Position numbers and translations under genes: made by a program
Origin: [Eubacterium] saphenum
GTDB lineage: Bacteria > Bacillota > Clostridia > Lachnospirales > Anaerotignaceae
Assembly: GCA_945912105.1 (NCBI GenBank)
Contig: CAMEBC010000007.1
Location: 19,471 to 83,470, forward strand
Direction: 5' to 3'
Length of the DNA: 64,000 nucleotides
The notes under the pieces: generated by a model
What the model saw: the letters and a program-made list of their open reading frames with translations, nothing else
Told to the model about the DNA's origin: nothing
The model's database searches: none
Shown here: positions 2,128-63,034 of the stretch, piece by piece
How the letters are laid out: each line of letters begins with the position of its first letter
How positions within the stretch are numbered: the stretch's first letter is position 1

Positions 2128-3282
2128 ATGGAAGAAATGGTGTTTCAGATTGGGCCCATCCGTCCCCCTAGTGAAGCAAACAGCTTGCTGCTGCGGGTAA
2201 CGGTAAACTGCCCTTGGAATAAATGCAAATTTTGTATGTTGTATAAAAAATACGATTTCCATACTCGCCCGGTGGAAGATGTCAAAAAGGATATCGATAC
2301 CATGGCAGAACTGCGTGATCGTATCTTACAGTATAAAAAAGACGGTGAATGGGATATCACTGCCATCAATCAGGATTATCAGTCCCTGACAACAGACGAC
2401 CAGCGCTGGTGTTACCATATGGTGTTCCGCTGGATGACAGAAGGCGACTGCAATTCTATCTTCCTGCAGGACGCTAATACCATGTGTCTGCGTGCCGACT
2501 GGTTGGCGGAGATCATCCGTTATGTGCGTGTGAAGCTGCCTGAAATCAAGCGTATCACTTCCTACGGCAGAGCCAATACTTTGGCGAAGATCAGCCCCGA
2601 GGATTATAAAATGCTGAAGGAAGCAGGCTTAGACCGTATCCACTCCGGCTATGAATCCGGTTCCGATAAGGTACTGGCTCTCATTGAAAAGGGCTGTACT
2701 CAGGAAGAACAGATCATCGGCGGCAGAAAGGTCAGAGAAGCAGGCATCGAACTGTCCATCTATTTCATGCCCGGTGTTGGCGGGAAAGAACTTTCCGATG
2801 ATAATGCCATTGAAACAGCGAAGGTCATCAATGCGGTAAACCCCAATTTTGTCCGTCTGCGTACTTTTGTTCTGCGTACCGGCTCTCTGATGGAAGAGGT
2901 GCGGGATGCCGGCGGCTGGACAGAAGATACTGATATGAACAAACTGCTGGAAATCAGAAAATTACTGGCGCATATCGACCCCACAAAAGCCAACGGCAAG
3001 ATCACCAGTGACCATATCATCAACCTGCTGCAGGAAGTCAATGGCGATATGGATACAGACCTGCCCTGGATGCTGGAATATATCGATTCCTTCCTGGCAC
3101 TGCCTGAACTGGAACAGAGAAAATATCAGCTGGCACGCCGTATGGGCTTCCCTCTGGACTGGAAGCAGCTTTGGCGCATGAAGGAAAGTGACAGACTGAT
3201 CATCGAAGATATGGCGAAAAATATCGTCGACGAAACTGAATGGGAAAAGAAACTCCATACCTATATGGATCACTATATTTAA
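2128..3282 (+). CDS. Radical SAM protein with non-canonical CX4CX2C cluster motif
   Basis: ORF 2101..3282. ATG at 2128 follows an AAGGAG RBS. N-terminal GPIRPPSEANSLLLRVTVNCPWNKCKFC. The rest is TIM-barrel-like (GYESGSD, FMPGVGG). No C-terminal Cys cluster (no SPASM domain). Confidence 0.8.
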   Translation: MEEMVFQIGPIRPPSEANSLLLRVTVNCPWNKCKFCMLYKKYDFHTRPVEDVKKDIDTMAELRDRILQYKKDGEWDITAINQDYQSLTTDDQRWCYHMVFRWMTEGDCNSIFLQDANTMCLRADWLAEIIRYVRVKLPEIKRITSYGRANTLAKISPEDYKMLKEAGLDRIHSGYESGSDKVLALIEKGCTQEEQIIGGRKVREAGIELSIYFMPGVGGKELSDDNAIETAKVINAVNPNFVRLRTFVLRTGSLMEEVRDAGGWTEDTDMNKLLEIRKLLAHIDPTKANGKITSDHIINLLQEVNGDMDTDLPWMLEYIDSFLALPELEQRKYQLARRMGFPLDWKQLWRMKESDRLIIEDMAKNIVDETEWEKKLHTYMDHYI

Positions 3283-5417: not shown

Positions 5418-5930
5418 ATGTTAAATGAAAAAGTTGTGGAACTGCTGAATGATCAGATCGTAAAGGAATTGTATTCCGCTTACCTGTATCTGGATTTCTC
5501 CAATTTCTATTCTGAAAAAGGCTTGGATGGCTTTGCAAACTGGTATCGCATCCAGGCACAGGAAGAAAGAGACCATGCACTGCTGTTCTATGATTACCTG
5601 CACAACAACAGTGAAAAGGTAACACTGGGTGCTATCGATGCCCCCAGCGTGAAACTGGATGCACTGATGGATCCTCTGAAGGAAGGTCTGAAGCATGAAG
5701 AATACGTAACAGATCTGATCCATACCATCTACGCTGCTGCAAAGGATGTAAATGACTTCCGTACCATGCAGTTCCTGGATTGGTTCGTAAAAGAACAGGG
5801 CGAAGAAGAAAAGAATGCCAACGACCTCATCACAAAGATGGAACTGTTTGGCAGCGATCCTAAGAGCCTGTATATGCTGGATCAGGAACTGGGCGCAAGA
5901 GTATATTCTGCACCTTCTCTGGTTCTGTAA
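5418..5930 (+). CDS. Ferritin (non-haem, bacterial)
   Basis: ATG at 5418 follows an AAGGAGG RBS. Ferroxidase-site pattern: ELYSAYLYL, QAQEERDHA, EEY, QFLDWFVKEQGEEE. Confidence 0.9.
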   Translation: MLNEKVVELLNDQIVKELYSAYLYLDFSNFYSEKGLDGFANWYRIQAQEERDHALLFYDYLHNNSEKVTLGAIDAPSVKLDALMDPLKEGLKHEEYVTDLIHTIYAAAKDVNDFRTMQFLDWFVKEQGEEEKNANDLITKMELFGSDPKSLYMLDQELGARVYSAPSLVL

Positions 5931-5967
5931 TCAGTATTTTCTAAAAATCTGGCTTCATATGGTTTTC

Positions 5968-5999
5968 AAAAAGACACGGTTTTTTCCGTGTCTTTTTTT
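5968..5999 (+). terminator. Rho-independent terminator
   Basis: AAGACACGG pairs with CCGTGTCTT, followed by a T-run. Confidence 0.75.
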
Positions 6000-6059
6000 C
6001 ACCAAAAAATTTGTCCATACATACTCTGAAATAGAAAAGAACGAGAGGATGGATTTTCT

Positions 6060-6866
6060 ATGCCCAATAACAACTGGTATGAAACAAGTGAAGATATGAT
6101 GATGCCCCTGCCTTTGACAGCAGAACAGGCCAATGAAGCTGTAAATGAAAGGACATTGACGGAGGAAATGGTGGATGATACTGCCCGCCGCCGTTTTCCC
6201 AGCATCACTTTGCCCAATAATACCAATATCACTGTGATTCCCATCATCCCCGGTATCACCCTTTTTGGATATATCCGTTTTATGAACGCCAGCCCCGGGG
6301 AAACGAGGGTAGATATCTATGTCAATGGGCGGAAAGTGGCGTCCAATCTGCTGTATCGCAACTTTACGGAATATATGAAGGTCTTTCCCGGCTGGTACCG
6401 TATCGCCGTCTATGCCGCAGGCACCATCCGCAATCCTCTGACGGTAACGACACTGCAGGTGGAGGCAAACAGTATCACCACACTGGCAGTCATCGGCCTT
6501 TCCGGGGAAATCTCTACCTTAGCCATCAATGACAGCCGCCGTTTTTTGAATCGGAACCGGGCTTATGTGCGCTTTGTGCAGCTTTCCCCCAATGCACCTA
6601 CCATGGATGCCTACTGGGACGATGCCCTTGTGGTTTCCGAATTGAATTATCAGGATATCAGCCGATATATGACCACTGCCCCCGGCAGCCATAACCTGAA
6701 GATGCGAGATAGCCTCAGCGGGGCAAATTTGGTGGAACATCCTGATGTGAGGGTAGAGGGCGGCAAGGCTTATACCATTTATGTGGTGGGGGATATTACC
6801 GACAGAACAGGTCTGCAGGTTCTGATTCCTATGGAAGGCAATACCTATTTGAATTTTGGCGAATAA
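6060..6866 (+). CDS. DUF4397 domain-containing protein
   Basis: 268-aa ORF with two repeats of the pattern (I/V)RF(M/V)xxSPxxxxxDxY...(YRNFTEY / YQDISRY) typical of DUF4397. Confidence 0.65.
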   Translation: MPNNNWYETSEDMMMPLPLTAEQANEAVNERTLTEEMVDDTARRRFPSITLPNNTNITVIPIIPGITLFGYIRFMNASPGETRVDIYVNGRKVASNLLYRNFTEYMKVFPGWYRIAVYAAGTIRNPLTVTTLQVEANSITTLAVIGLSGEISTLAINDSRRFLNRNRAYVRFVQLSPNAPTMDAYWDDALVVSELNYQDISRYMTTAPGSHNLKMRDSLSGANLVEHPDVRVEGGKAYTIYVVGDITDRTGLQVLIPMEGNTYLNFGE

Positions 6867-6992
6867 GCTTCGATAAATTCAATGGATTTTTTTCTGAAAA
6901 AACTATACGGAAATGAAAATAATTGTTATAATAGCGACAATGGTGTGCCGCAAGGGGCGGCAGAAAGTACGATTGAAAAAAGGAGAATCATC

Positions 6993-8195
6993 ATGTTAAA
7001 AGGAAAAACCGTTGTTTTAGGTGTAACAGGCAGTATCGCTGCTTATAAAATGGCAAATGTTGCAAGCATGCTGGTGAAGATGGGCGCAGATGTTCATGTC
7101 ATCATGACACAGAATGCCTGCCAGTTCATCACACCTGTTACCTTCGAAACACTGACAGGCAATAAATGTATGGTAGATACCTTTGACCGCAATTTCCAGT
7201 TCCATGTTGCCCATGTTTCCATTGCGAAAAAGGCGGATGTGCTGCTGATCGCTCCTGCTTCTGCAAATGTGATCGGCAAGCTGGCAAATGGCATTGCGGA
7301 TGATATGCTGACAACAACAGCTATGGCCTGCACCTGCAAGACCATCATCGCGCCTGCCATGAATACCAATATGTATCATAATCCCATCCTGCAGGATAAC
7401 CTGAAAAAACTGGAAGGCTATGGCTATGAGATCATCGCCCCTGAAAAAGGTCTGCTGGCTTGCAGAGATATCGGCGATGGCAAAATGCCCTCTGAAGATG
7501 TTCTGGTAGGTCATATTGTCAGAGAGATCGCTTACGAAAAAGACCTTGCCGGCATGAAAGTGATCGTGACCGCAGGCCCTACCCAGGAAAGCATCGACCC
7601 TGTCCGCTATATCACAAACCATTCTACAGGCAAAATGGGCTATGAACTGGCAAAGGCTGCTATGCTGCGCGGTGCGGAGGTAACATTGGTCAGCGGCGTA
7701 ACCATGCTGGAAAAACCTCTGTTTGTGGATTTCGTGCAGATAACCAGTGCAGGGGATATGTTCGAAGCCATGAAAGCTCGTTTCCTGGATAACGATATCA
7801 TTATCAAAGCTGCAGCTGTTGCCGATTATAAGCCTAAAAATTACAACGATGAAAAAACAAAGAAAAAAGACGGCGATATGTCTATCGAGCTGGACAGAAC
7901 ACAGGATATCCTGAAATATATGGGGGAACACCGCAGAGAAGGGCAGTTCTATTGCGGCTTCTCCATGGAAACCCAGAATATGCTGGAAAATTCCCGTGTA
8001 AAGCTGGATAAGAAAAACATCGACATGGTTGTTGCCAATAACCTGAAAGTAGCCGGCAGCGGCTTTGGTACAGATACCAACGTTGTTACCATGATCTCCA
8101 AGCAGGAAGAAATCGAACTGGAACTGCTGACAAAAGAAGAAGTAGCCCATAAGATTCTGGATGAAATCCTGAAGCTGAAAGCGCTGAAAGGCTGA
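6993..8195 (+). CDS. coaBC: Bifunctional phosphopantothenoylcysteine decarboxylase / phosphopantothenate-cysteine ligase
   Basis: ATG at 6993 follows an AAGGAG RBS. Flavoprotein N-domain (GVTGSIAAYK, PAMNTNMY) and DFP C-domain (VTAGPTQESIDPVRYITNHSTGKMG). Confidence 0.9.
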   Translation: MLKGKTVVLGVTGSIAAYKMANVASMLVKMGADVHVIMTQNACQFITPVTFETLTGNKCMVDTFDRNFQFHVAHVSIAKKADVLLIAPASANVIGKLANGIADDMLTTTAMACTCKTIIAPAMNTNMYHNPILQDNLKKLEGYGYEIIAPEKGLLACRDIGDGKMPSEDVLVGHIVREIAYEKDLAGMKVIVTAGPTQESIDPVRYITNHSTGKMGYELAKAAMLRGAEVTLVSGVTMLEKPLFVDFVQITSAGDMFEAMKARFLDNDIIIKAAAVADYKPKNYNDEKTKKKDGDMSIELDRTQDILKYMGEHRREGQFYCGFSMETQNMLENSRVKLDKKNIDMVVANNLKVAGSGFGTDTNVVTMISKQEEIELELLTKEEVAHKILDEILKLKALKG

Positions 8196-35097: not shown

Positions 35098-35120
35098 GTT
35101 CTTCCAATATATATCTTTTC

Positions 35121-35318
35121 AGCACACCTCATAACGTCGCATCCAAATAAGAAAACATCTAAAACGGATAAATCTTTGATTTTCAAGGATTTATCCGTTT
35201 TTTGCAGAATGGGTAAGTTTTCTTATTTGGAATGTCGCTGGCAGTTCCCCTTAAGAAATCAATAAACGATTAAAGAATGTTTTCTTAAGGGGAACTACAG
35301 AATGGGTGTGCTTTTTTT
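35121..35318 (+). repeat. Copy 1 of a ~200-nt structured module (terminator nested in a three-way junction closed by a second terminator stem)
   Basis: P1 35121-28/35305-12 plus T7. P2 35142-56/35217-31 (15 bp). Inner terminator hairpin 35161-35201 plus T-run. P3 35243-58/35281-96 (16 bp). Homologous to 54098-54296. Confidence 0.7.
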
Positions 35319-35420
35319 CGTGCCTTTGAAAGGATAGATTGTCCTGAAAAGGGGTTTATGATAGAATATTTGTATACAATAACCTTGACGAACTTTTTTA
35401 TATAAGAAAGGACGAATCAA

Positions 35421-36725: not shown

Positions 36726-36735
36726 TCAAAAAATA

Positions 36736-36759
36736 AGCACCCCGTTAGGGGTGCTTTTT
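36736..36759 (+). terminator. Rho-independent terminator
   Basis: AGCACCCC-gtta-GGGGTGCT followed by T5. Confidence 0.75.
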
Positions 36760-51616: not shown

Positions 51617-52669
<1,053 letters not shown>

Positions 52670-53005: not shown

Positions 53006-54085
<1,080 letters not shown>

Positions 54086-54097
54086 TTAACGCAATAT

Positions 54098-54296
54098 AAA
54101 AAAGAGTCCGCAATGGCGCATCCTTAGAAAAAAACATGAAAAGGGGATGAATCCTTATATTTTAAGGATTTATCCCTTCATTCTTTTTCAATGTTTATTT
54201 TCTTCTAAGAAATGTCGCTCGCAGTTCCACTTAAGAAATCAACAAATCATAAAATCAATGTTTTCTTAAGCGGAACTACATAAGGACTCTTTTTTT
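54098..54296 (+). repeat. Copy 2 of the ~200-nt structured module
   Basis: P1 AAAAAGAGTCC (54099-54109) / GGACTCTTTTT (54284-54294) within a T7 run ending at 54296. P2, the inner hairpin (54141-54178) and P3 (54223-38/54261-76) sit in the same order as in 35121-35318. The 3' half is ~87% identical by eye. Confidence 0.7.
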
Positions 54297-54385: not shown

Positions 54386-54751
54386 TCAAATCATTTTCGC
54401 CAAAGAATGTCCGATGAAAATACCGACCAGACAGCTAAGCACACTCAGCAGAATATAAAAGATACCTGCAAAGGTCTGTCCGCCTTCCAGAAGCTGAAAG
54501 GCTTCCAAAGAAAAAGTAGAGAAGGTGGTAAAGCCACCGCAAAGACCAGTTTTCCAGAACAGCATCGTGTGACTGGAAATCTTTTTTCCATTCAACACCA
54601 TGCCAGCCAGAAAACCAATAAGCAAGGCACCCAAAATATTGGTCACCAGTGTTAAAAGCGGAAAGGAGATGCGGCAGGGCATCAAACTGATCAAATAGCG
54701 CAGCAGAGCACCAATGCCGCCGCCCAGCATTACAAAAATTCCGTTCATCAT
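54386..54751 (-). CDS. crcB: Fluoride efflux channel CrcB/FluC
   Basis: ORF 54386..54772. ATG at 54751 lies 10 nt after the response-regulator stop. GGGIGALLRY and GLCGGFTTFSTFS motifs. Confidence 0.85.
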   Translation of the reverse strand: MMNGIFVMLGGGIGALLRYLISLMPCRISFPLLTLVTNILGALLIGFLAGMVLNGKKISSHTMLFWKTGLCGGFTTFSTFSLEAFQLLEGGQTFAGIFYILLSVLSCLVGIFIGHSLAKMI

Positions 54752-54761
54752 ATCAATATCC

Positions 54762-55463
54762 TCAAGGTTCATCGATCATACGGTAGCCAATGCCAACTTC
54801 TGTAAAAATATATTCAGGAGAAGCAGGATTTTTTTCCAGTTTTCTGCGGATATTTGCCATATTTACCCGAAGGATCTGATTATCCTTGACCGCATAGGGA
54901 CCCCACAGTTCTGTAATGATAAAATCATATGTAAGAACACGACCGGCACTTTTCGCCAACAAAGATACGATCTTGAATTCAATCTGCGTCAGATGAACTT
55001 CTTTGCCATCTACTGTTACCTGGCGTTTTCCAAAGTCAATGGTCAGGCCTTTTGTAGAAAAGACATCACTGGTGGGGGCACCGTTGTTATTTTTTGCGCT
55101 ATGGCGCAAAGCTGTACGGATACGTGCCAATAATTCAGATGTACCAAAAGGTTTGCAAATATAGTCATCTGCGCCCAGATCCAATGCCTCTACCTTATCA
55201 GATTCTTCCCCACGGGCAGAAACTACGATCACAGGAACAGACGACCATTCTCTGATTTTTTTCAGGATCTCCATGCCATCCATATCCGGCAGACCCAAAT
55301 CCAGCAGGATCAGATCCGGACAATGGGATGGGATCATAGAAAGGGCTTCACTGGCTGTTTTTGCCACCAGAGGCGCATATGTATTGGCTTTTAATGTCGT
55401 TGCAATGAAGTTACAGATGGCATCTTCATCTTCGATGATCATTACTTTGATTTTATTCGGCAT
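54762..55463 (-). CDS. OmpR-family response regulator, KdpE-like
   Basis: 233 aa. DLILLDLGLPDMDG and SARGEESDKVEALDLGADDYICKPF closely follow the KdpE pattern. Winged-helix C-domain. Confidence 0.8.
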   Translation of the reverse strand: MPNKIKVMIIEDEDAICNFIATTLKANTYAPLVAKTASEALSMIPSHCPDLILLDLGLPDMDGMEILKKIREWSSVPVIVVSARGEESDKVEALDLGADDYICKPFGTSELLARIRTALRHSAKNNNGAPTSDVFSTKGLTIDFGKRQVTVDGKEVHLTQIEFKIVSLLAKSAGRVLTYDFIITELWGPYAVKDNQILRVNMANIRRKLEKNPASPEYIFTEVGIGYRMIDEP

Positions 55464-59879: not shown

Positions 59880-60062
59880 AAAATATGCCTCCTTTATGAT
59901 CATAGGTTGTATTTTAATAGTAACATATCAAATTCACCTCTGCAAGATAAATGTAAAAATATGAAAAAATCTTGATTTTTCAAGGATTGACAGGAAAAGT
60001 CGAAACCTGTAAAATAAAAAAATGATGAAAAGTTTTTTACAATTTAATAAGGAGGTCTTTTT

Positions 60063-61933: not shown

Positions 61934-63034
61934 ATGACTTGCGTCAGAGTGGCTAAAATGGAAGATAAAGCTGACTTTTACAGGCTGTGGAAGATTTGCT
62001 TTGGTGACAGCGATGCTTTCTGCCATTGGTTTTTCGAAAACCGCTTTGCACCTGCCTATTCTATCGTTTTGGAAACGGAAGGGGAGGTTGCCAGCTGTAT
62101 GCAGGCATTCCCTTATGCATTGCGTATCCGTGGGAAAGAAGTCCCCGGGGCGATGCTCTGCGGCGTTTCTACCCACCCCAGCCATCGGAAAAAGGGCTTT
62201 ATGGGGCAGATTTTCAGTTATGAAATGAATCATTTGCGAGGAAAAAACTGCATTGTTGCGCCCCATACCCCGGCGGTGCTGCCCAGCTATTTTTCCTTTG
62301 GGCACTTGCCTGTAGCAGATGCAAAATATCTGGAATGTGAATGTGTTCCTTCCTTTGAAACTTCCGTAGAACTGGTTTCCATAGAAGAAAAGGATTGGGA
62401 CAAGCTGTTTCCTTTATATGAACGTTTTGCGGCAAACTATAGCGGCATTATTTGGCGCACAAAAGAAGATTTTCTTCGGAAAGCTGCAGACTATGCTGCG
62501 GACGGCGGAAAATGTGCTGCATATATTAAGAATAACGAGATCAAAGGCTATGCCTTTTATTATCAGACAGAGGAAATGCTCCTTTGCGTAGAAGCAGCAG
62601 CAGAGGATGGATATTATCATAGCCTGATGGAAGGGCTGCTCGCCTGTGGCAAGGGGTTGGCGTTTTCTGCGAAGCTTCCGCCGGAATTATATCTTTCTTT
62701 TCCCTTTGGGAAATTGACAATAAAGCAGAAAGGGGTCATGGGACTTTGCAATGGGCCTGCACTGTTGGAAGCTCTTGATCTGGAAATTCCGTATGGCTTT
62801 AAAATGAATGACCATGTGGTTCCGGAAAACAATGGCATCTTTGATTTTCAGGGAAACCACTATGCAAGCGATCCTGTATTTGAGATTTCCGCAGGTCATC
62901 TTCTGCAGATTTTGGTAGGGTATCATTCCCTTCGTGAATTAGAAAAAGAAATTGTAGTCTTCGACAAAGAAAAATTCGACAGAATCAATGCTCTTTTGCC
63001 GAAGCAGAATTGTTATATTATAGATGAATATTAA
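61934..63034 (+). CDS. GNAT family N-acetyltransferase (Eis-like, with a C-terminal SCP2-like domain)
   Basis: 366 aa. GVSTHPSHRKKGFMGQI acetyl-CoA loop. Length and layout resemble Eis-type enzymes. Confidence 0.6.
   Translation: MTCVRVAKMEDKADFYRLWKICFGDSDAFCHWFFENRFAPAYSIVLETEGEVASCMQAFPYALRIRGKEVPGAMLCGVSTHPSHRKKGFMGQIFSYEMNHLRGKNCIVAPHTPAVLPSYFSFGHLPVADAKYLECECVPSFETSVELVSIEEKDWDKLFPLYERFAANYSGIIWRTKEDFLRKAADYAADGGKCAAYIKNNEIKGYAFYYQTEEMLLCVEAAAEDGYYHSLMEGLLACGKGLAFSAKLPPELYLSFPFGKLTIKQKGVMGLCNGPALLEALDLEIPYGFKMNDHVVPENNGIFDFQGNHYASDPVFEISAGHLLQILVGYHSLRELEKEIVVFDKEKFDRINALLPKQNCYIIDEY

Follow-up and report, generated by a model that had tools for sequence, protein, structure and literature searches.

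A probable non-autonomous mobile element in the loops of transcription terminators of Anaerotignum and other Clostridia

Two strongly folded modules of about 200 nt were analyzed in a stretch of 64,000 nucleotides from [Eubacterium] saphenum (GenBank assembly GCA_945912105.1, contig CAMEBC010000007.1, positions 19,471 to 83,470 of the forward strand). This whole stretch is called the window, and its positions are used as coordinates: copy 1 (W1) lies after pyc at 35121-35318, and copy 2 (W2) lies after the second of two gap genes at 54098-54296. Each module is an ordinary, largely bidirectional intrinsic terminator with an element of ~170 nt in its loop. We consider it very probable (approximately 85%) that behind both modules is an undescribed non-autonomous mobile DNA element that targets terminator loops. 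The target is the terminator hairpin, usually the junction between the loop and its 3' arm, and the presence or absence of the element is polymorphic within a species. An earlier note on this DNA, made from the sequence alone, had described ~175 nt as if placed in the loop of a plain terminator, and orthologous sites without the element prove this description right. The evidence favors one of the three roles that it proposed, the terminator-loop-targeting mobile element.

Empty sites and target geometry

The modules are shown to be insertions by orthologous sites that lack them. At the copy 2 site, a locus of the same species (L052; L-numbers denote loci fetched from other genomes or metagenome assemblies) has a 100% identical GAPDH and the same crcB neighbor, and its terminator reads AAAAAAGAGTCC-GCTA-GGACTCTTTTTTT (core GAGTCC-GCTA-GGACTC-T7). 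The more distant Anaerotignum loci L032-L037 are also empty, with GAGAGTCC-ATATGTAT-GGACTC-T7. A comparison of orthologous pyc 3' regions, as the earlier note had proposed, revealed the same situation for copy 1. The empty site of L041 reads GGCACAC-TCCATTTGGG-GTGTGC-T7, and short plain pyc terminators are likewise found in L038, L039, L042, and L057. The pyc intergenic region measures 144-176 bp in these empty relatives versus 323 bp in the window, and the site is filled in the closer strains L012, L055, and L056. For a second subfamily of the element (subfamily B, see below), L022 has the paralogous terminator AACACCATGC-TTTC-GCATGATGTT without the element. In L016 and L005 this terminator is occupied, and the filled site equals the empty L022 terminator plus the element, with no bases gained or lost besides.

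No two copies share the sequence of the outer stem of the module (P1), which lies between an A-run and a T-run. When the element was removed in silico, 12 of 14 sites folded as a plain hairpin centered on the insertion point. For 11 of the 12 interpretable sites, this point coincides with the 3' end of the loop or is 1 nt away from it, in the orientation of the element.

Structure of the modules and anatomy of the element

The minimum free energy structure of copy 1 (ViennaRNA, 35115-35325) is a three-way junction of P1 and two further stems, P2 and P3, at -84.6 kcal/mol, compared with -41.5 +/- 4.0 kcal/mol for dinucleotide shuffles (z = -10.9; equaled by 0/200 shuffles). All the stem positions proposed beforehand, for P1, P2, the hairpin nested within P2, and P3, were recovered by this fold. 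As single-stranded DNA, copy 1 adopts an equivalent architecture on both strands (z = -11.1 and -10.0). The recurrence of this architecture at 54098-54296, also noticed earlier, was borne out: copy 2 folds into P1, P2 with its nested hairpin, and P3 (-75.5 kcal/mol, z = -9.7). Aligned with copy 1, it has 82% identity, and both P2 and the inner hairpin show compensatory changes. Sequence comparison and an nhmmer profile found no copies other than these 2 in the 64-kb window. Short ATCTTGATTTTTCAAGGAT-like matches to the tip of the inner hairpin at 59958-59988 and 62826-62856 correspond to a promoter-region palindrome and to coding sequence and were rejected as copies. The features of the two modules are the following.

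35121-35128 / 35305-35312, plus strand: P1, outer stem of copy 1, AGCACACC / GGTGTGCT, 8 bp, then T7 (35312-35318)
35121-35128, plus strand: 5' arm of the host pyc terminator, copy 1, AGCACACC, pairing with 35305-35312
35129-35135, plus strand: residue of the original terminator loop, copy 1, TCATAAC, left of the insertion (basis: empty L041 and filled orthologues L012/L055/L056)
35136-35302, plus strand: inserted element, copy 1, 167 nt, subfamily A1, GTCGCATCC...GGAACTACAGAA (nhmmer profile match 35136-35299, E = 2e-37)
35142-35156 / 35217-35231, plus strand: P2, copy 1, within a long imperfect hairpin at 35137-35236 (arms ~35137-35156 / 35217-35236), 15-20 bp, enclosing the inner hairpin
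35161-35203, plus strand: inner terminator-like hairpin and T6, copy 1 (stem-loop to 35201), 18 bp, belonging to the element
35243-35296, plus strand: P3, copy 1 (arms 35243-35258 / 35281-35296), 16 bp, 22-nt A-rich loop, imperfect palindrome AGTTCCNCTTAAGAAA(T)CA ... TG(T)TTTCTTAAGNGGAACT
35305-35318, plus strand: 3' arm of the host pyc terminator and T7, copy 1, GGTGTGCT
54098-54114, plus strand: 5' arm of the host gap terminator, AAAAAAGAGTCC, and loop residue GCAAT, copy 2 (basis: empty sites L052 and L032-L037)
54115-54283, plus strand: inserted element, copy 2, 169 nt, subfamily A2, GGCGCATCC...GGAACTACATAA (nhmmer match 54115-54281, E = 3e-38)
~54141-54178, plus strand: inner hairpin, copy 2 (from the fold)
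54223-54238 / 54262-54277, plus strand: P3, copy 2 (from the fold)
54284-54296, plus strand: 3' arm of the host gap terminator, GGACTC, and T-run, copy 2

P2 and P3 are two related imperfect palindromes in tandem that share the motif AAGAAA(A/T)CA...TGTTTTCTT. The upper stem of P2 (AAGAAAACA/TGTTTTCTT) is conserved in sequence, and that of P3 repeats the same motif with a constant T.T mismatch, the P3 sequence being invariant apart from a central N.N position. The covariation check called for in the earlier note gave a positive result in the lower stem of P2, which covaries between subfamilies, as 5 of its 16 pairs have compensatory double changes across 14 copies. In total, 97.7% of the P2 cells are paired, a share that falls to 42-62% on sliding the partners, and the covariation score was reached by 0/500 column shuffles. 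The structure of P2 is under selection. All full-length copies have a homologous inner hairpin, in which the tip, (A)AATCCTT..AAGGATT(T), is conserved, the lower stem covaries, the 3' side is rich in T, and the flanks are T-rich or A-rich; this hairpin is dispensable and is missing from a 136-nt variant (L005/L016). Comparison of the left end with the reverse-complemented right end gives an imperfect inverted repeat of ~20 bp, matching at up to 17/20 positions (L004) and starting 6-8 nt inside each end. This repeat was surpassed by no more than 1/500 shuffles in 9 of 14 copies. A short conserved tail of 6-7 nt lies beyond the right repeat, after P3.

Copies, hosts, and subfamilies

Scanning one genome per species with the P3 core yielded 12 true relatives, and an nhmmer family profile run inside the fetched loci added 3 further copies. 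The family has ~15 independent copies or sites in genomes of Anaerotignum, Lachnospiraceae, and other Clostridia, nearly all of them between the arms of a terminator-like hairpin that differs from site to site. Among the hosts are Anaerotignum lactatifermentans DSM 14214, with three copies within one 8-kb locus, a Lachnospiraceae metagenome-assembled genome (MAG) with four loci, and several Clostridia MAGs. Homologues of GAPDH and of the CoA-transferase put the window itself within Anaerotignum or beside it. The element measures 136-186 nt across the family and has no open reading frame (ORF). There are at least two subfamilies, A (GGCGCATCC ... ATGTCGCTNGCAGTTCC ... GGAACTACATAA) and B (AGGGGCTKCTTCAT ... 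AGCCGTCGCAGTTCC ... GGAACTTGCTTT). Copy 1 is 96% identical to L012 (same site) and 90% to L007 (another site in another genome), and copy 2 has 91% identity with L014 and 89% with L015, neither of which is at the gap site. Copies with 90-96% identity occupy different loci both between genomes and within a single one (MAG BRZ_CE bin39), which argues for recent mobility.

The orientation of the element relative to the gene is free: it is co-oriented with the terminated gene at three independent sites (W1, W2, and L007) and antisense to it at no fewer than six (at least L002, L010a, L010b, L014, L015, and L016). The L016 element sits behind a tRNA operon, and the genes neighboring the other copies are unrelated and without a common function.

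Reduced and decaying forms are also part of the family. A P2-only derivative (L010 83-163, named L010c) and a P3-only derivative (L022/L024/L028) were found, and the decaying copies comprise L001b, L010b, the P2-only L010c, and the P3-only L022. A diverged copy at L001 1622-1801, without the inner hairpin and with a decayed P3, adjoins a terminator and is not inside one. The heptamer GTCGCAG, a microhomology of 7 nt with the P2-P3 linker of the element, marks the deletion behind the P3-only variant. A degenerate relative at L039 2518-2587, after a CoA-transferase gene, retains the left half of P2 and a remnant of the inner hairpin. At L023 ~2880-3040, the left flank is that of the L016 site (AACACCATGCTTTC) and the right flank is different (GAAAGCGGCTTTTTG), which suggests that two copies recombined or that the assembly is chimeric. 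In A. lactatifermentans-like genomes, the tRNA-Thr/Tyr/Met locus (L016 4740-5150 and L022 5040-5560, read on the minus strand) contains duplicated units, each with a tRNA-like 3' end (GGTTCAAATCCCTGCACCCC) called by neither ARAGORN nor Rfam and a conserved G-rich stretch with GGTCGCAG adjoining the terminator.

Some matches of the genome scan were rejected on inspection, namely L008, L017, and L018, an operator-like palindrome upstream of a sugar-kinase-like gene, and L009, L011, and L013, which are tandem repeats. The metagenome scan recovered only the Anaerotignum tRNA-locus copy and its variants, which gave the empty site but no new insertion sites. A scan of viral contigs with the 3' half of P3 returned three chance matches and nothing else, and BLAST searches of the element against plasmid and phage collections had no match. 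Rfam 15 had no match in the whole window at the gathering threshold; at the locus, a permissive E-value gave nothing relevant, the best sub-threshold matches being generic hairpins. In the literature on a described terminator-loop MITE (a miniature transposable element with inverted repeats), we found only analogues (SPRITE, IS1272, and the IS110-family insertion sequences [IS] that target REP sequences). The failure of the earlier note to match the module to an RNA family, MITE, or IS end is echoed in the Rfam, plasmid, and phage collections, and the family has neither canonical terminal inverted repeats (TIR) nor a fixed target-site duplication (TSD). The family appears to be undescribed so far.

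Junctions

No TG..CA-type termini occur in the family, and there is no fixed-length TSD across copies; L016/L005 compared with the empty L022 site shows none. Junction identity of 3-7 nt is present in only some copies of subfamily A and in none of subfamily B. The left flanks end in AAT, AAC, AGA, AAA, or TAT in subfamily A and in GTT, TTC, TTT, CTC, GTA, or ATA in subfamily B. Target position -2 is A in 5/6 subfamily A sites and T in 6/7 subfamily B sites (Fisher p = 0.03), a bias that mirrors the right end of the element itself (..TAA in A, ..TTT in B). In subfamily B, the right-end consensus TTGCTTT is identical to the flank found on the left of the L005/L016 site (ATGCTTTC), and only the last 1-2 bases follow the flank. 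These similarities are compatible with an overlap or coupling sequence or with the recognition of loops that resemble the single-stranded tail of the element.

Several boundary models were tried and rejected. No fixed TSD of 2, 3, 4, or 7 nt fits all copies, and neither does a serine-recombinase GG or AG core or an IS3-like TG..CA boundary. The right end TACATAA and left end GCGCAT of subfamily A resemble dif/Xer half-sites, a likeness rejected as unsupported: it is lacking in subfamily B, and the targets are not dif. In the case of an integron attC site, the base of P3 (GTTCCNC ... GNGGAAC) places AAC/GTT at the outer end of the stem, unlike RYYYAAC ... GTTRRRY (R''/R').

Weighing the mobile element

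Several observations weigh against a transposed terminator-loop element as we describe it. The sample is small (~15 sites), and the P3-based search pattern skewed it toward copies with an intact P3. The window and the fetched loci yielded neither an autonomous parent nor a candidate transposase. A DDE element would not usually have a conserved tail of 6-7 nt beyond its right repeat. The same-species alleles of copy 2, empty and filled, differ in their loops (GCTA versus GCAAT...), and the exact breakpoint is therefore unreadable from them. At 3/6 sites of subfamily A, the element's own right junction resembles the final 7 nt of its left flank (L012/L055 CATAACG 7/7, L015 6/7, and L001 6/7; permutation p = 0.005), own pairings exceeding cross pairings, which looks like a duplication or an overlap sequence. 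The right junction is CATAAG in W2, L014, and L007 alike, whatever their flank, and subfamily B has no own-flank signal (p = 0.73).

As for the enzyme, Pfam searches of the ~50 ORFs of the window yielded no transposase or recombinase, all matches at E <= 1e-5 being housekeeping and several ORFs having no match. A cognate IS1182-type DDE transposase (DUF772 / DDE_Tnp_1_6) is absent from the window. No full-length IS with the same ends was among the matches of the genome and metagenome scans, which were aimed at copies. Since no transposase or full-length relative was recovered, the element is taken to be non-autonomous. The target cut and both inserted element ends all lie where a short single-stranded segment re-enters a helix, a geometry that points to an enzyme specific for structure, with folded DNA as its substrate. 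This recombinase, supplied in trans, would bind the P2/P3 repeats and act on the folded target hairpin, as a cruciform or single-stranded, and would cut at that point of re-entry, common to the target and both inserted ends.

Our leading guess, in itself less likely than not, is a transposase that targets hairpins and makes no duplication, as does the one of IS1272 (IS1182 family). In staphylococci, IS1272/TnSha1 inserts in hairpins, many of them verified transcription terminators, in both orientations and without primary-sequence specificity or target-site duplication, and it deletes part of the target hairpin by cutting blunt in the stem (PMC4923244). As a Firmicute element that targets terminator hairpins in these same ways, it is the closest documented behavior to that seen here and the only documented system with the same target behavior. 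There are differences: IS1272 is an autonomous DDE IS of 1.9 kb, whereas the present element is ORF-less, 136-186 nt long, and located at the loop/3'-arm junction. The removal of part of the hairpin by IS1272 is a further point against the likeness, since both arms are intact at nearly all sites here. The likeness is one of behavior.

It is conceivable, and somewhat doubtful, that the family represents a new class of structure-guided "stealth" element. Such an element would recognize the single-strand/helix junction of the loop instead of a sequence, insert without duplication or damage, re-create the terminator by self-folding, and bring a spare one. Its enzyme could be an uncharacterized hairpin-specific recombinase whose logic (two tandem imperfect palindromes plus a 7-nt loop-like tail) is unlike that of DDE, HUH, and known tyrosine systems.

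A repeat of the IS200/IS605 type, PATE- or REP/RAYT-like, which an HUH Y1 transposase would bind at P2 and P3 as its left and right ends and mobilize in single-stranded form, seems unlikely. It would account for the lack of inverted-repeat tips and of a fixed TSD, for the two related imperfect hairpins on the same strand near each end, for the conserved ~7-nt spacer between the right hairpin and the right end, for folding of both strands as single-stranded DNA, and for the subfamily-specific base at -2 mirrored in the right end. However, no fixed 4-5-nt target abuts the left end, where the flanks are variable and only -2 is biased, and the distance from the left end to the foot of P2 leaves no space for a guide tetranucleotide. 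No replication-strand bias was seen, local GC skew being positive at about half of the loci and negative at the other half (small n, and local skew is a weak proxy for the replication strand). Searches by tblastn with TnpA sequences of IS200 and IS608 against the window and the loci found nothing. The hairpin loops of 22-90 nt are also well above those of known TnpA substrates (IS608/ISDra2), which are much smaller. PATE and REP/REPIN-RAYT repeats do resemble the family in being small, non-coding, and extragenic, at gene 3' ends, without TIR or TSD and with imperfect palindromes near both ends. The present family differs in having no fixed target tetranucleotide, no strand bias seen, and much larger hairpin loops; no Y1 or RAYT gene was found here, and the palindromes are in tandem, not in the REPIN arrangement.

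We likewise judge unlikely a tyrosine recombinase or transposase (Tn554-, Tn916-, or integron-like) that works across an overlap or coupling sequence of 6-7 nt, part of which is brought along from the site occupied before. The own-flank heptamers of subfamily A (p = 0.005), the CATAAG shared by W2, L014, and L007 irrespective of flank, and the identity of the subfamily B right end with the L005/L016 left flank would all fit this model, as would the lack of a fixed TSD and of canonical TIR tips. Against it, the analysis turned up neither an integrase gene nor arm-type sites, the own-flank signal is lacking in subfamily B, P3 misfits the attC consensus, and the sites are few.

Instead of an active mobile element, the family could be a domesticated host element in which P2 and P3 are bound by a protein of the host (an insulator, nucleoid, or RNA-binding protein) or in which selection has kept the module as a better or regulated terminator; this we regard as very unlikely. 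The near invariance of the P3 sequence across genera, the palindrome CTTAAG within each P3 arm, the terminator-like hairpin that the element provides, and the insertions kept at orthologous sites (W1, L012, L055, and L056) speak for it. Opposed to these are the presence/absence polymorphism inside a species, the decaying copies described above, and the lack of association with any gene function, and the invariance of P3 is partly an ascertainment effect of the search pattern.

The reading as a sense-strand structured RNA, a 3'-untranslated-region (3'-UTR) module or 3'-derived small RNA (sRNA) of highly expressed genes such as pyc and gap with P1 as its covarying closing stem, agrees with the very stable RNA fold of both modules, the covariation of P2 and the inner hairpin, and the co-orientation of both window copies with the upstream gene, but it is largely refuted by the antisense copies, the copies behind unrelated genes and a tRNA operon, the same loci standing empty in a same-species strain and relatives, the complete ordinary terminators that P1 and the leftover loop rebuild once the element is removed, and the lack of an Rfam match, and it retains hardly any credibility. 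The earlier note had favored the sense strand because of pairs that are U-G on the plus strand only. This argument is contradicted by copy 2, whose P3 has an A.C that becomes G.U on the minus strand only. The central P3 position reads CG, GC, UA, GU, CA, AC, or CC across copies and is thus frequently unpaired, and A.C/G.U asymmetries of the opposite sign cancel the U-G argument.

Comparison with other systems and neighboring loci

The mobile element that we favor shares traits with other repeats and IS. Like classical MITEs derived from DDE IS, it is small, non-coding, multi-copy, and polymorphic in presence, and it differs from them in having no fixed-length TSD. Its imperfect ~20-bp inverted repeat starts 6-8 nt inside each end, with a conserved extra tail on the right, and may or may not count as a terminal repeat of the MITE kind. 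With IS1397/ISKpn1 (IS3 family, REP loops), it shares insertion into the loop of an extragenic palindrome. Those IS, and an IS found at L043, have TG..CA terminal repeats and 3-4 bp duplicated; the present family has neither. The L043 IS (5826-7105; ENA ERZ16021068, an Anaerotignum relative) is an IS3-family IS with HTH_21/rve ORFs and ends TGAACCGATCC...GGATCGGTTCA. It sits exactly in the loop of a CoA-transferase terminator, AAAGCACCTC-[TAAT]-IS-[TAAT]-GAGGTGCTTT, with the 4-nt loop TAAT duplicated, and the orthologous window position is ~36735-36756. Terminator loops thus serve at least one further element of this genus, unrelated to the present family.

Class C group II introns reportedly are also mobile elements with intrinsic terminators as structural targets. 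They insert just past the terminator stem and are ribozymes of ~700 nt or larger, with or without a reverse-transcriptase gene. The structural target is alike, whereas insertion point and size differ, and nothing intron-like was found here by Rfam. The SPRITE, BOX, and RUP repeats of Streptococcus pneumoniae are interspersed repeats enriched at gene 3' ends (PMC3049150). They resemble the family as Firmicute, modular, and strongly folded repeats, SPRITE being terminator-like. SPRITE differs as a terminator-like repeat beside genes, not inside pre-existing terminator loops, BOX and RUP differ in having TIRs, and there is no similarity in sequence.

Around copy 2, both the window and L052 have crcB (fluoride channel, 54386-54772 in the window) between the second gap gene and a response regulator. 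The Anaerotignum relatives L032-L051 lack it there and have an intergenic region of only ~100 bp. The tandem GAPDH paralogues (51620-52669 and 53066-54085) have ~75% DNA identity over long stretches, and their arrangement is kept in relatives. L054 (1140-1284; ENA ERZ27235130), with the same GAPDH protein as the window, diverges just after the gap stop at ...taattaacgcaat|, and its terminator is replaced by three short GC-rich hairpins (aaccacgcc..cgtggtt, ccagccc..gggct, and agccagcg..cgctggct), which may be another repeat family or a rearrangement.

Consequences for the host and significance

Insertion of the element into a terminator should be nearly neutral to the host, judging from the predicted structure. 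P2 and P3 would fold on themselves and the split terminator halves would rejoin as P1, and the three-way junction can thus be understood as a by-product of the insertion geometry, because this self-folding reunites the arms. In copy 1, co-oriented with pyc, RNA polymerase would meet the element hairpin and U6 at ~35161-35203 and stop pyc at ~35203, and any read-through would reach the re-formed P1 and U7 at 35305-35318. The gene after copy 1 has its own promoter-like site at 35339-35367. The insertion seems designed to be harmless, since the terminator would re-form and a spare one is supplied, and such near-neutrality is a likely reason why these sites are tolerated.

The element accounts for a class of "3'-UTR structures" of gut Clostridia that are long and extremely stable and could be mis-annotated as sRNAs or riboswitch-like RNAs, and the family can now be modeled and masked. 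Its presence/absence polymorphism is usable as an Anaerotignum strain marker in metagenomes. As a probable mobile element, it would be a clear example of how the secondary structure of DNA can direct transposition, with nucleotide precision at the loop/3'-arm junction, and this precise targeting of terminator loops together with a built-in terminator distinguishes it among small non-autonomous bacterial repeats. The enzyme, once identified, could yield a structure-guided integration tool, and the significance would be higher if it were a new kind of hairpin-guided recombinase. Considered together, the present family, the IS3-family IS of L043, and the staphylococcal IS1272 suggest that terminator hairpins are a general safe-haven target in Firmicutes.

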